64,000 bases of DNA, taken from contig OY970340.1 in NCBI GenBank assembly GCA_963717465.1, positions 960,001 to 1,024,000 on the forward strand, read 5' to 3'. The notes under the pieces were generated by a model. The model worked only from the letters and a program-made list of their open reading frames with translations, did no database searches and was not told where the DNA came from. The position numbers were made by a program, and so were the translations under genes. Shown one piece after another: positions 36,106 to 41,463 of this stretch; within the stretch, counting starts at the first letter, position 1; each line of letters starts with the position of its first letter. Origin of the DNA: Candidatus Bathyarchaeota archaeon (GTDB taxonomy: Archaea; Thermoproteota; Bathyarchaeia; Bathyarchaeales; Bathycorpusculaceae).

Positions 36106-36972
36106 ATGAGTAAGCTTGTTGGCTTCGTCCGGTTAATGCGTCCTATTAACGGTTTGATGATGGGTTTTGCCGTTTTAGTAGGCGCGATACTGGCCACGCG
36201 AGCAAACGTCTATTTGTTTCAAAGTAACCTGCCAAGTTTACTTTATGGTTACTTAACTGGTTTCTTTCTAACTGCTTCTTCAATGGTGATTAATGATTAT
36301 TATGACCGAAAAATCGACGCTATAAATGAGCCTGCTCGTCCAATTGCAAGCGGCACAGTTAAACCGCTAGAGGCACTTGTGTTCGCTTCTGCTCTAGCAA
36401 TAATTGGTCTCTTTTTCGCTTACAGTTCTAATAGTTCAAGCGTTCTCTGTCTCATGATTGGGATAATTGCATGGTTAATAACTGTTGGTTATGCGACGGT
36501 GGGAAAACGTGCTGGTTTACCCGGAAACTTCTTGGTCAGCGCCTGTGTAGCGACCCCATTCATTTTCGGCAGTGTAGTCGTTACAAACACAGTCCAATTG
36601 AACGTTTTACTTTTCGCTTTAATGGCGTTTCTCTCCAACACAGGCAGAGAAATCACAAAAGGCATCGTAGATGTCAAAGGCGACAGTGCAGAAGGCATAA
36701 AAACTCTAGCCGTACGCTATGGAGAAAAAAAAGCCGCAATCGCCTCAGCAGCATTTTACATTTCAGCCGTCGCATTAACGCCTATACCCGTGATCCTTGG
36801 TGTTGTTTCATTCTGGTTTATACCCTTCGTGTTAGTCACCGACATAGGATTAGTTGTTTGTTCAGCAACCTTGCTCAAAGATTATTCAAGGGAAAACGCC
36901 AGAAAAGTGAAAAAGCTCGTTCTGATATTCTTTATGTTCGCTTTACTAGCATACATTTTAGGGGCCCTATGA
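36106..36972 (+). CDS. Digeranylgeranylglyceryl phosphate synthase (UbiA family)
   Basis: MRPIN, NDYYDRKIDAINEPARP, REITKGIVDVKGD..G..TL. Confidence 0.85.
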   Translation: MSKLVGFVRLMRPINGLMMGFAVLVGAILATRANVYLFQSNLPSLLYGYLTGFFLTASSMVINDYYDRKIDAINEPARPIASGTVKPLEALVFASALAIIGLFFAYSSNSSSVLCLMIGIIAWLITVGYATVGKRAGLPGNFLVSACVATPFIFGSVVVTNTVQLNVLLFALMAFLSNTGREITKGIVDVKGDSAEGIKTLAVRYGEKKAAIASAAFYISAVALTPIPVILGVVSFWFIPFVLVTDIGLVVCSATLLKDYSRENARKVKKLVLIFFMFALLAYILGAL

Positions 36973-37052
36973 AATCATCTCGTCTTTATTGAATGCTTTT
37001 ATTTTCGACTACGCTTTAGTATTTTTGCCGGATGATGAGAAGGCATTAGCTT

Positions 37053-37092
37053 GACGTTCGCGGATGAAAGTTCAGAGTTACTCAGACGGCAA
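37053..37092. repeat. Repeat A1 (40 bp; last 21 bp identical to A2)
   Basis: gacgtt-N13-tcagagttactcagacggcaa, colinear with 39414..39453. Confidence 0.85.
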
Positions 37093-37196
37093 CGTACGAC
37101 TAACTCTGCATCTTTATCGCTAGTTTTTAGCAAACCGTCATCGATGTAGATCTTGACATTTCGTCTTGCTTCCTCAATCCGTTCCTTTTCTATCAT
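37093..37196 (-). pseudogene. Truncated HEPN-like partner of the nucleotidyltransferase
   Basis: ATGA overlap with the MNT stop; about 33 codons (MIEKERIEEARRNVKIYIDDGLL..) then reads into repeat A1. Confidence 0.5.
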
Positions 37197-37810
37197 AAAA
37201 TCTCCTCCAACATTTTAAAAAGCATCTCCGCACCATATTGAACGATTCGATTGTCTATTGCCTCCCATGCAACATTAGGCTTTTTCTGTTTAAGAAGCTC
37301 CGAAAACTCCTCTGTAGTTAATATCGTCTCGTGGATCCCCAGAGGGCTAACACGCTGGACAGATGCAATAGCCGCTTCAACTTCATTTTGAAATTTGCGC
37401 TCAGGAATAACCAAGAGAACATCTAAATCTGATCTTGCCGAGGCTGTGCCCTTCCCGTGGGAGCCGAACAGCATGAGTGTAAAGAAGGGCAAAGTAATTT
37501 TTGAAGTTAAATCTTTGGCAAGGATTTCTATGTCTTTGTGTTTTTCGAAGAAGCGGCTGGCTCGTATGCCCTCTATGTATGCAAGAAGAGAAGAGTTACC
37601 TCGTAAGTTCAGTCTGCAGTAAGTTACTGGAGGTCTTTTCTCGGCAGTAATATAGTGCTGTTCTGCCAGGCGCTTGATCATGGTGTGAGTAATTTTGTAA
37701 TCCTTTCCTATTCCCTCTGATATCTTTCGCACGGTAAAGCTTTCCCGAATTCTTGAGCTGAGAAAAGAAAGAATTTCGACTGATGTCTTATTCAAGGGTT
37801 CTAAGTACAT
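37193..37810 (-). CDS. wHTH + minimal nucleotidyltransferase (MNT antitoxin-like)
   Basis: N-terminal HTH-like region; LFGSHGKG..SDLDVL. Confidence 0.85.
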   Translation of the reverse strand: MYLEPLNKTSVEILSFLSSRIRESFTVRKISEGIGKDYKITHTMIKRLAEQHYITAEKRPPVTYCRLNLRGNSSLLAYIEGIRASRFFEKHKDIEILAKDLTSKITLPFFTLMLFGSHGKGTASARSDLDVLLVIPERKFQNEVEAAIASVQRVSPLGIHETILTTEEFSELLKQKKPNVAWEAIDNRIVQYGAEMLFKMLEEIL

Positions 37811-37833
37811 AATATTATGTACCTAAGTACTTA
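37805..37833. promoter_or_regulatory. Palindromic operator candidate over the MNT start
   Basis: Perfect 18-bp palindrome gtacataatattatgtac (37805-37822) plus taagtactta (37824-37833). Confidence 0.55.
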
Positions 37834-38030
37834 ACCTATAAATCTTGCAACCGACAGCGAAGCTCTTCTCAGAGTCGTGCACGCTCGTCCTTCCGCTGTT
37901 TCTAAAGCAGCATACTAACCCAACCTTTCGTATCACAAAGTCGCAGATTATGAGACTTTATGATATGAATCACAATATCAAACTTGATGCAGGTGTGTCA
38001 GCTATCCCTCTCCCTTAAATAACAAGAACA

Positions 38031-38060
38031 GAAGCATGAAACTTTGCACTTACCTGCTTC
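38031..38060. repeat. Repeat B1: 11-bp arm / ctttgcac / 11-bp inverted arm
   Basis: gaagcatgaaa ctttgcac ttacctgcttc; arms 9/11 complementary; 16-bp core identical at 39253-39268. Confidence 0.8.
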
Positions 38061-38415
38061 TATATTTGCAAAGATACGGGAATCATGCTCTGGCTCAAAG
38101 AATCGGTTTTATCATAGCTTAAATCCGAACGTAAAAAGACACAGGTAGACTAGAAACTTATCGACGACGTCTTGTCGTCAACGAGCTCTAACGTTTTCCC
38201 ATTAGATCGCGCTAAAGGAAGGAAAGCTATCGAAAAAACGCGGAATTATCAACAATGCAGAACCGCTTGAAATATGAATTCTCTGAGGAGACAGATAATT
38301 GCTAAAGATAACCAAACATGACCTCCAAATTTGGGCAGATGAACAAGAACTCTCAGATACGTTATTTGCAGAATTGGACCATCGTTTGGTCAAAATATTG
38401 GATGCGAATAACTCC

Positions 38416-38889
38416 CTATCCTTTGAGTATTTTCAGGCATACTTTCTCTTCTATCCAGAAGCCTTGATCGACAAGTTGTTGAACCAAATCTTCAGGTGAC
38501 TGCTTGATCAATCTCAGGTCCAAGAAAGCCTTAAGCAAAGCTATCGTTCCCATCACCTTAATTTTCAGCCTTCCTGCCGTTTTTCGGGCTTTCAAATCAT
38601 CAAGCAACGCCATATCAGTTTTGAACTCAAGTGCCAGCGTCATCGTTTCTATCTCGCCTTTTCCCAAGCTTGACGAGAGCAGATTAAGAAGTTCAGTGTT
38701 TGAGCATTTCACCACTTCAACGAATCCTTCGTCGCTTAGTACGTGGATTTGCGTTACCGCTTCATCTTTGCTCACTTCTTCAAAAACTGATTGAGGTACA
38801 TACACCTTATCGAATACTTCTTTTAGAAAGGGAAGATAGCCAAGTTTACCTAAAGCTAGTAAAACTGAGCTGTCTATTGTCGCTTTCAA
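38416..38889 (-). CDS. PIN-domain protein (DUF3368 type), putative toxin
   Basis: IDSSVL, VPQSVFEE, LGKGEIE, LLDDLKARK, MGTIALL. Confidence 0.85.
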   Translation of the reverse strand: MKATIDSSVLLALGKLGYLPFLKEVFDKVYVPQSVFEEVSKDEAVTQIHVLSDEGFVEVVKCSNTELLNLLSSSLGKGEIETMTLALEFKTDMALLDDLKARKTAGRLKIKVMGTIALLKAFLDLRLIKQSPEDLVQQLVDQGFWIEEKVCLKILKG

Positions 38890-39143
38890 TTATGACGCTT
38901 CTTGAGTAAGTTCTTGCTTGCTTGCAATTCTTTCTGCAACTCCGCTTCATCCAGAAAAGTGTACTTAAAACCTACTGTTCGAAGCAACGCTGAAAATTCG
39001 GGGCGGGACATACCCATAACTTCAGCTGCCTTTGCCAAGGTAACAGTTCGCGAAGCAAGGAGCCCGAGGACAAGAAGAAAGCGCTCTTTTTCCTCTCTTT
39101 CGGTAAACAAAGGAAACTCGTCTATAACACTCTCTATCGACAT
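38886..39143 (-). CDS. UPF0175-family HTH antitoxin
   Basis: VTLAKAAEVMGMSRPEF..LL; overlaps the PIN gene start. Confidence 0.8.
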   Translation of the reverse strand: MSIESVIDEFPLFTEREEKERFLLVLGLLASRTVTLAKAAEVMGMSRPEFSALLRTVGFKYTFLDEAELQKELQASKNLLKKRHN

Positions 39144-39245
39144 TTTCAACACGCAAATGATAGTTGATTAATTGGAAATTTAACTGTTTTCATAGCTCGA
39201 TAATTCGCTTCGACTAGAAAGTTTTAGTGCAAGATAAGCAATGGC

Positions 39246-39275
39246 AAAACACGAAACTTTGCACTTACATCCTTT
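39246..39275. repeat. Repeat B2
   Basis: aaaacacgaaa ctttgcac ttacatccttt; same spacer and orientation as B1. Confidence 0.8.
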
Positions 39276-39413
39276 TTTCTGAAGGCCAGACCCAAATCGC
39301 AGCTAGGAGCCGCAAGCTTAAGGGGGGATACATTTATATATTGAGGCTTGTGCGGAAAAGCTCTACCTGAAGCGTTAAAGCAAGCTTGGAATCGCTAGAT
39401 TTAGCGTTGTACA

Positions 39414-39453
39414 GACGTTAACGTGCGTACAATCAGAGTTACTCAGACGGCAA
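39414..39453. repeat. Repeat A2
   Basis: gacgttaacgtgcgtacaa tcagagttactcagacggcaa. Confidence 0.85.
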
Positions 39454-39527
39454 ACAACTAAATAATTGGAGAAGGACTCGGTTAAACTTGATTAATCTAA
39501 GCATTTTGAGTCTTTGTTGCTTATTAG

Positions 39528-41021
39528 CTAGGTAATTTGTCCATATTTTTTAGGAAGACTAGCTATTTGGACTTTGTTTTGTTCTATGAAATCTTTCAGC
39601 TTTGCCTTAGTTTTTTCATTGTTTTCAACAATATTTGTGGCTTCTTCGACTAGAACATAATTTGATTGAGCATATTTCTCAAGAGAGTCCTTAATTTCGT
39701 TGGCTTTCTTCTCAACGATTGCAGCGTCATTTCCCGTATTGGTTGATATTTTTGATACTTCCTTAACATCGTTAACAACATTCTCAATTAATTTCTTAAC
39801 ATCATTGGCAATAACTGCAACCTCTTCAGCGATTTTTTCGAGTTCCTGTGCTCCAGCAGTCTGCTGTTCAACCGAAGCAGAAACTTCTTCTGAAGCGGAA
39901 GAACTCTCTTCAGCAATACTAGCAACTTCAGATATAGTGTTAGCAACATTGTCTAACGAGTTAAGACCACGTTTAACGCCACTCGCTAAGTTACTCACTT
40001 TGTAAGTCATTGTAGCCATAATATTAGTAATGCCCTCAGCTTCTTTAATAGCATCCAAAACCACATTGGTTCCTTCTGCCGCGTTCTTATGAGACTGATT
40101 TGCAATAGCATTCGTCTGGGTACCAGCATCCTTAATACCCTTCACCAAAGTAATAGCAGAACCAGCAGCAACCTTAGATTGACCAGCCAAGCTCTTAACA
40201 GCATCAGCAACAACCGCAAAACCCCTGCCAGCTTCACCAGCCCTAGCCGCCTCAATAGCAGCGTTCAAAGCCAACATGTTTGTTTGCCCAGCAATGTCTG
40301 AAACTGAATTAGCCATCTGTCCAACCTGCTCTACACTATCAACCATGGATATGACAGCTTCAGAAACTTTGGTGATGTTAGCCTTGATATCTTCAATAGC
40401 ATGAAGTCCTTGTTGCCCTTTTTCATTAGCTTGTTTGGACTTTGTCAAAGCTTGGGTAGTAACAGTGAGAGCTTCCTTTGCTATGCCACCCGCTTCATCC
40501 ATAACTTTTTTTAAGGATTCAGTGTTTTTTGCTGCTTCCTGTGAAAGCTCAGCTAACTTTTGCGCTCCAGTAGAGACCTGTTTCGAAGCAGTGTTAACCT
40601 GCTCCATTCCAAGAGCCATCTGTTTAGATGTTTCTTCCACTTGCTTGCCCATATTCTCAACACTAACACCAGCCTTTGAAACATCTTCTGCACTTACTAA
40701 GGCTTTTTCGGCAAAGTTGCCAGATTCCTTAGTTGAAGTTGCTAATTTTGAAACTATTGTTGATGTGTCAAGTATAAGTTCACTATTAGTAGCAAGTATT
40801 GTGCTATCTTCCATGATTTGATTATTAACTTTTTTAGCTGAGTTAATAGTGCTATCATTTAAATTGATTGTTTCCTCAGCGATTTGAATTTCTTCTTCAA
40901 GTTTTTTAGCATACATTTGTAATATCTCTTGGTTTTGAGATCGAAGCTTCTTATTTTCTTCTTCTCTCTGTTCAACCTGTTTCTCAAGTTCTTTTATTCT
41001 TTCTTGATTCTCAATTGGCAT
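39528..41021 (-). CDS. Soluble methyl-accepting chemotaxis protein
   Basis: [30 protein letters not shown]; no TM segment. Confidence 0.9.
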
Positions 41022-41463
41022 TATAATCAATCTCGATCTGATTCGTTTGTTACATAATTCTTGATAAGTAAATTGCGATTTTGCACTATATACTGACCAG
41101 TCTTTTAATTGAAAAAGTTAATTTCGTTAAATTTAATTTAACACTTAACTGAATATTAATAATATTGCAATCAAAAAATCCTGATAATTACGAATTCATG
41201 TTTTAGAACAGTTTCAACTTTTATAACAAACTTGAATAAAATTAGACACCAATTGGCTAAACATGATAAATAAAGATGGTTCGAAGTTTGTTGCTCTTGT
41301 AGGTTTGTTTGTTGTAGCATAGCCAGTATTGTTATTTGTGAGAAGCAACATTTATAGTTCGTATCAAAGCGTTATTTAAAATCCATGACCCTTTTTCTTT
41401 ACCTGTGAGCTGTGCGATTTCCTCCGGGTGGCAAACAACCGCAACGTAGGACATATATAGGTT

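Follow-up and report, generated by a model that had tools for sequence, protein, structure and literature searches.

In the 64,000-nt stretch analysed here (hereafter the window; Candidatus Bathyarchaeota archaeon, contig OY970340.1, positions 960,001 to 1,024,000), the 3′-end of a predicted box C/D small RNA (sRNA) gene, a guide-RNA gene, appears to serve as an attachment (att) site. A dedicated tyrosine integrase likely inserted an element there, and the 2.36-kb island between the ends of two repeats, A1 and A2, is likely its decayed remnant. The island carries toxin-antitoxin (TA) genes. We hold this overall reading with good confidence. The host genome is a single 3.05-Mb contig that is 88% complete by markers.

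A1 (37053–37092) and A2 (39414–39453) were identical at 31 of 40 positions, and the last 21 were exact. The first-pass annotation had described A1 and A2 as colinear 40-mers, and its repeat coordinates, identities and gene calls were borne out, whereas the true common core spans only ~21 nt. The 5′ part of A1 is a variable linker of the sRNA; the corresponding part of A2 belongs to an element arm not shared with A1. The 21-mer occurred in the genome only in these two copies when searched to ≤4 mismatches. The features of the site are as follows.

37072..37092, + strand: A1 core, likely attL, with the predicted 6-bp crossover region at 37072–37077; 21/21 identical to A2, and its TCAGAG identical in 16/16 second copies
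39433..39453, + strand: A2 core, likely attR, the former 3′-end of the sRNA gene, now displaced
37027..37091, + strand: predicted box C/D sRNA gene; stem 37027–30, C box 37032–38, D′ guide 37039–50, D′ box 37051–54, C′ box 37064–70, D guide 37072–82, non-canonical D box CAGA 37083–86, stem 37087–90
36997..37005, + strand: putative TATA-like promoter element of the sRNA gene, a TTTAT-type motif recognised by its position relative to the stem

Predicted box C/D sRNA gene at A1

A1 is predicted to form the 3′-end of a conserved gene for a box C/D sRNA that guides 2′-O-methylation of 23S rRNA. Across 40 relatives searched at the DNA level, the interval 36990–37105 was conserved apart from its neighbours in 31 (22/24 genus genomes and 9/16 of other families). 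The sRNA core pattern matched 103 of 120 genus genomes at a single locus, and the reversed control matched none. The C, D′, C′ and D boxes were parsed in this order in 115 of the 116 gene copies. The 4-bp terminal stem paired in 115/115 parsed copies, with compensatory changes in 3 and G-U in 7, and a TTTAT-type motif was located 28–32 nt upstream of the stem in 107/116 copies.

The D guide paired 12/12 with helix 69 of the 23S rRNA (genome 3025521–3025510), and the next best run was 8. The D′ guide paired over 8 bp with 23S rRNA, 26 nt downstream of the D-guide target. By the N+5 rule, the D′-guide target is the position that we take to be the A1938 equivalent (E. coli numbering; 1939 anchor). 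The guide target sequence was unchanged in 15 of 16 23S copies, and fibrillarin and Nop5 are encoded in the host genome. The same rule, described for C/D guide targets in passages of PMC4644070 that also name helices 69 and 71 as methylation hotspots, places the D-guide target at the A1913 equivalent, mapped via the 1915 anchor given in PMC2794176. According to that part of PMC2794176, yeast snR63 guides Am2256, two positions before the 1915 equivalent.

Seven copies, and also G394, have the canonical D box CTGA. A simple C/D scan of the whole genome returned zero candidates; it also missed the A1 gene itself and was too strict to be informative. Both the sRNA gene and the integrase clade found beside it in relatives had been overlooked in the first-pass annotation.

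Integrase clade, element arms and islands

A1 and A2 are likely the attL and attR of an integrative element that uses the end of the sRNA gene as its docking site. In the genome collection, a clade of 425–445-aa tyrosine integrases was found (Pfam Phage_integrase, R-HxxR-H-Y set invariant), and in 15 of its 22 loci the integrase starts directly behind a complete sRNA gene. These loci span several genera and another family of the class. The remaining loci lie at the 3′-end of rpl12 (5/22) or elsewhere (2/22). The rpl12 group formed one branch (99/98) inside the sRNA-associated rows of the integrase tree, which was built without L301, L303, L305 and L306 (<300 aa as read). Among named integrases, psiM100 is the nearest to this clade, at 25% identity. 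A tRNA gene was rejected as the target, none being found at the site or in the clade loci. A split (suicidal) integrase of the SSV type was also rejected, as whole integrase open reading frames (ORFs) start 54–87 nt after the core.

The core was present 2–3 times in 15 of the 103 genomes. Two of these, G053 and G022, resemble overlaps of contig ends, and a second whole gene is present in two others: in G100 the copies lie 4 kb apart (L098), and in G130 they lie on two contigs (L101, L102), perhaps from a mixed bin. Second core copies lacked the 5′ half of the gene, and 15/16 were preceded by two 11-bp boxes around a 6-nt spacer. In the window, both arms were found, and the arm before A2 was nearly the same as in G071.

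39406..39432, + strand: P arm, element-derived; 11-bp box, 6-bp spacer GTTAAC, inverted box; same layout before 15/16 second cores
37094..37104, + strand: P′ arm, element-derived inverted 11-bp box, likely integrase-binding; same 11-mer behind the gene in G016

Scored with an arm consensus derived from the very same data, an inverted 11-bp box stood at +1 to +3 behind the sRNA gene in 57 of 105 copies, and at five control offsets in 1–3 of 105. An integrase or its remnant lay downstream in 12/57 armed copies and in 0/48 armless ones. Integrase stubs were found behind the sRNA gene in G098, G044, G064, G015, G016 and G085. In G062 (L091) a P arm, the core and an integrase start are contiguous, which is either a circle junction or a tandem.

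The islands between the gene and the second core measured 1.2, 1.4, 3.0, 5.6, 6.2, 11.3, 14.4, 16.7, 30.2 and 32.2 kb, and their cargo was unrelated from one to the next. The 16.7-kb island of G098 (L097:1508–18240) holds a gas-vesicle-like cluster, as read from its translations, behind a 53-codon integrase stub. Empty alleles were also present. In G130 the gene is joined directly to DNA that is found after attR in G019, and in 14 armless genomes no more than 200 nt separate the sRNA gene from the radical-SAM gene found behind attR in G004, G079 and G130. The first-pass annotation had tied its reading of the locus to empty alleles and cargo variation in relatives, and both occur at this site. 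Together with the arms and the integrase clade, the empty alleles make its view of A1 and A2 as tyrosine-recombinase sites likely.

The core and the integrase were both absent from viral contigs. A strict attR pattern had no match in metagenome contigs, and this pattern is too narrow to show absence. In six genomes, a unit of box, 6 nt and inverted box stood 19–36 nt behind the sRNA gene rather than abutting it (L035:2144, L093:2632, L206, L208, L205, L098:7179); these displaced units are possibly scars of tandem insertion. The rpl12-type subclade sits at the L12/P1 stop codon in both orientations and has the same box layout upstream of the integrase (L113, L114, L115, L117, L118). An empty site of this type is located in the host genome at G000:C1:986846. 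At L295:1680–1865 a clade integrase lies behind neither target; a similar arm is present upstream, where there may be another small RNA gene.

State of the island, crossover point and B repeat

The island in the window was annotated as follows.

37107..37196, − strand: 5′ remnant of a HEPN-like gene, ~30 codons; homology to 203-aa genes of relatives stops at 37107
37193..37810, − strand: intact wHTH-nucleotidyltransferase (MNT-like) gene; Pfam NTP_transf_2, NCBIfam MntA weak
37898..37975, − strand: remnant of an AbiEi_4-type antitoxin gene, start and upstream region; 73–76% DNA identity to L141/L144
38054..38424, + strand: broken AbiEi (3′ end, 38054–38277) and AbiEii (5′ end, from 38299) of a type IV TA operon; tblastn/tblastx to the intact operons of G122, G123, G101 and G046
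38416..38889, − strand: intact PIN/DUF3368 gene
38886..39152, − strand: intact UPF0175 gene

Of the two TA cassettes named in the first-pass annotation, MNT and PIN/UPF0175 are indeed intact, but a third, broken TA operon had been overlooked. This AbiEi/AbiEii remnant, whose intact homologs match Pfam AbiEi_1 and AbiEii, is cut at both ends and has stops and frameshifts. The partner of MNT had rightly been called truncated and HEPN-like. Its relatives have 203 aa, the HEPN match is weak (E 0.003), and the homology ends 3 nt from the left arm. The 65-aa ORF at 36999–37196 is a read-through across the att site, antisense to the sRNA.

The clade integrase was absent from the island and from the genome (best E 0.017). 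No XerA was found above the cut-off in this 88%-complete genome (best score 77.5 against a cut-off of 220). A recombinase supplied from elsewhere, as the first-pass annotation had proposed, agrees with both searches. Four tyrosine recombinases were found, all beside tRNA genes (Val, Lys, Ala, His; G000:C1:910185, 1639295, 2104311 and 2397495). In G016 the same left box is followed by an integrase start remnant. The island is likely a decayed, integrase-less remnant of an integrative element, and decay is a simpler reading than mobilisation in trans.

It is possible, though we do not favour it, that the island is a live non-autonomous cassette with both att ends, moved in trans by helpers and placed in tandem arrays behind the sRNA gene. 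The cassette accretion of the first-pass annotation would then survive for the A sites only. Six complete islands without integrase trace (G000, G004, G079, G097, G100, G130) fit such a cassette, and some are one neat unit, for example a PIN-antitoxin pair. Both cores in the window are exact, and stacked sites occur in several genomes. In run X2, one contig carries this PIN/UPF0175/P-arm module at ~95% identity; there, another P arm is joined within PIN and the core breaks down after TCAGAGTTAC, which points to a tandem arrangement. On the other side, the cargo in the window is truncated at both junctions, integrase stubs stand behind many arms, and the genome lacks a clade integrase. An identical cassette was never seen in two genomes, and no circular form was found. 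Tentatively, and at similarly low probability, the 3′-end of the sRNA gene may work in Bathyarchaeia as an active platform for cassettes. Helper integrases would there shuttle integrase-free units (TA pairs, secreted proteins, the gas-vesicle cluster) in tandem, and each incoming D guide, D box and stem would rewrite the guide RNA and push its D box away from CUGA.

For the decayed element that we prefer, the crossover most likely lies in TCAGAG, since these 6 nt were identical in 16/16 pairs whereas the 6 nt after box three agreed in only 4/16. At four rpl12-type loci, the corresponding spacer is where the element joins the host DNA that lies downstream of rpl12. Rare D-box variants were accompanied by an element arm in 25/28 copies compared with 32/77 of the others (Fisher p 1e-5, which overstates the association because the genomes are kin). 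The rpl12-type junctions and the variants that accompany arms both support a crossover in TCAGAG. The core position given in the first-pass annotation (around TCAGAG, inner ends AA/TT) fits this best estimate.

We propose that the integrase would bind 11-bp boxes, of which the element site would have four. The third box would coincide with the D guide/D box, and strand exchange would occur in the 6-bp TCAGAG between boxes two and three. The element would bring its own D guide, D box and closing stem, which would take the place of the final third of the guide RNA. This incoming copy would keep the guide RNA alive, and the 3′-end of the old gene would become attR. Later deletions would have removed the integrase and most of HEPN. 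Passages of PMC8371274 describe tRNA-targeting elements that likewise restore the end of the target gene with their own copy.

In elements of the same family, the exchange might instead take place where the gene terminates, within a dif-like 11-6-11 unit composed of a box, GGCANN and an inverted box; the gene would remain untouched and the core would be a binding box. We regard this as unlikely. The 11-6-11 arrangement is the dif layout (PMC8371274, in part) and recurs in both arms, and displaced units lie 19–36 nt behind the gene in G004, G074, G076, G078, G079 and G100. The 6 nt, however, differ between the ends in 12/16 pairs, the right box is missing in empty alleles, the rpl12-type junctions precede the unit, and the D-box variants travel with the arms.

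A second repeat, B, was located inside the island.

38031..38060, + strand: B1, with its 16-mer (38038–38053) at the junction with the AbiEi remnant
39253..39268, + strand: B2, second copy of the 16-mer, unsupported as a fixed-spacing site; 2-nt insertion in the related X2 contig

B1 and B2 share an exact 16-mer (38038–38053 and 39253–39268) and were identical at 24 of 28 positions overall; their flanks had no homology beyond ~28 nt. When the island was shuffled 3000 times, 4 shuffles produced an exact 16-mer repeat, which puts B above the expectation for random sequence, although 66 of 1272 real 2.4-kb genome windows contain such a repeat. The AbiEi homology begins at 38054, exactly where the 16-mer of B1 ends. 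The right arm of the inverted repeat that the first-pass annotation had read in B1 therefore consists of AbiEi codons, and B1 took part in some rearrangement.

It is highly improbable that A and B form one GAAA-N8-TTAC site family with nested cassettes whose partners are picked by spacer identity, as the first-pass annotation had modelled. The left 10 nt of B1 match the sRNA-side arm at 8/10 with TTAC after a 6-nt spacer, and B1 sits exactly on a junction and belongs to a repeat that is unlikely in shuffles. Against this, GAAA-N8-TTAC was not enriched in the genome (232 sites; 171–278 for spacings 5–11), and a position weight matrix from the four sites, together with a repeat search, gave no strong genome match beyond these four training sites. 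Nor was B enriched in 119 relatives, where it matched at 1 mismatch in 12 (reversed control 20), mostly in ORFs. The exact B 19-mer was absent from the genome collection, from which near-own records may be left out. B was absent beside 11 related UPF0175/PIN operons, and no homolog emerged when the two spacers that carry B were searched as DNA. The only B homolog, in the X2 contig, has a 2-nt insertion that alters the spacer. B also lacks the arm layout. The shared motif family and the B-bounded nested cassettes are therefore not supported.

Three other roles of B were rejected. As a terminal element motif, B was missing from the DNA preceding 13 other attR sites, where the best matches reached 9–11/16. 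Allowing for one bulge, B is similar to the complement of part of the 23S rRNA, and no sRNA using it as a second guide was found: a loose pattern matched 19 of 201 genomes, all different, with a similar control. Read by eye as attC, it has complementary spacer halves, and no site stands behind each gene. Rather than a second recombination system, B1 and B2 likely represent a side effect of rearrangement within the island.

Besides the limits given above for the arm consensus and the Fisher test, several points weigh against a guide-RNA gene with a decayed element behind it. The D box is CAGA rather than CUGA in 72/115 copies, the D′ duplex is only 8 bp, and one variant guide stays paired by G-U without a compensatory change. 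An Rfam scan of 36500–40000 gave no sRNA match and only three chance matches, and the fold z-score of the sRNA is only −1.2. The sRNA assignment, including expression and the methylation role, is a prediction from sequence. Within 1.6 kb, 45/57 armed copies had no integrase match (3 have a short start remnant), which fits non-autonomous cassettes too. The empty allele of the exact UbiA-sRNA-MCP flank pair was not seen in relatives, and no intact integrase was seen together with exactly the two arm types of the window. Neither excision nor a circular form was seen in small shares of two DNA contig runs, which yielded no joints. The placement of B1 exactly at a junction is a further point against this reading.

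A 24-nt palindrome over the MNT start (37802–37825) is kept in relatives and is likely an autoregulatory operator. The MCP gene to the right of A2 (39528–41030) has at least 6 paralogs in the genome, with 71–75% DNA identity. ARAGORN predicted two tRNA-Sec genes, at G000:C1:845695 and 2829638.

Archaeal island finders target tRNA ends, and a guide-RNA gene would be a missed entry point for accessory genes. The sRNA gene has element traces in about half of its copies across a large Bathyarchaeia genus. For these archaea, which lack genetic tools, its end is a candidate neutral integration site. The results suggest that some published "intergenic" att sites are unannotated sRNA genes. The pair of integrase subclades, at the sRNA and rpl12 ends, offers a matched set for studying retargeting, and the sequence of an rRNA-modification guide appears to be tied to an integrase binding site.

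Comparison with known systems

In the literature covered, chiefly open-access main texts, no C/D sRNA or small nucleolar RNA (snoRNA) gene was found as an att site, and no Bathyarchaeia C/D sRNAs were found. The predicted sRNA resembles the archaeal C/D sRNAs of helices 69 and 71 described in parts of PMC4644070 and PMC6009581, with a dual guide, nearby targets, the N+5 rule and the H69/H71 hotspot. Its D guide targets the same position as yeast snR63, the Am2256 equivalent (PMC2794176, in part). Unlike the known H69/H71 sRNAs, it lies outside Rfam, and its D box, in most copies CAGA/CGGA, likely also serves as an integrase box.

Like Xer/dif sites and pdif modules, the site has 11-6-11 inverted boxes, here in both arms, with TA cargo between sites. 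The pdif- or integron-like system suggested in the first-pass annotation is nevertheless not what was found: the host has no XerA above the cut-off and relatives have a dedicated integrase beside the site instead, and no recombination site is repeated after each cassette gene as in integrons.

The thaumarchaeal integrated elements of PMC6563490 resemble the island in their related hosts, att direct repeats and TA cargo. Of 68 such elements, the main-text passages place 14 in the 3′-ends of protein genes, 39 in tRNA genes and 15 in "intergenic" sites. The first group is resembled by the rpl12 subclade. These passages name no guide-RNA target, and some of the intergenic sites could be unannotated sRNAs. 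Proviruses in non-coding RNA (ncRNA) and transfer-messenger RNA (tmRNA) genes (PMC13626063, in part) likewise use RNA genes other than tRNA as att sites. In that main text ncRNA makes up 13.5% of RNA targets and the terms sRNA and snoRNA are absent; in contrast to these proviruses, the sRNA-site elements were not among viral contigs.

The closest match is the class II (pNOB8-like, lambda-paradigm) archaeal integrases reviewed in PMC8371274. In the passages concerned, these elements share with the sRNA-site family an intact integrase by the att site, direct repeats as attL/attR, a restored target, tandem reuse of the site and varied cargo. The targets named there are tRNA, intergenic and protein-coding, with sRNA or snoRNA not mentioned, whereas the target here is a box C/D sRNA gene with no tRNA at the site. 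The island in the window also differs in having no intact integrase, although relatives have one at the same site. The island works like the class II elements that target tRNA genes, and by its target it is not a member of them.

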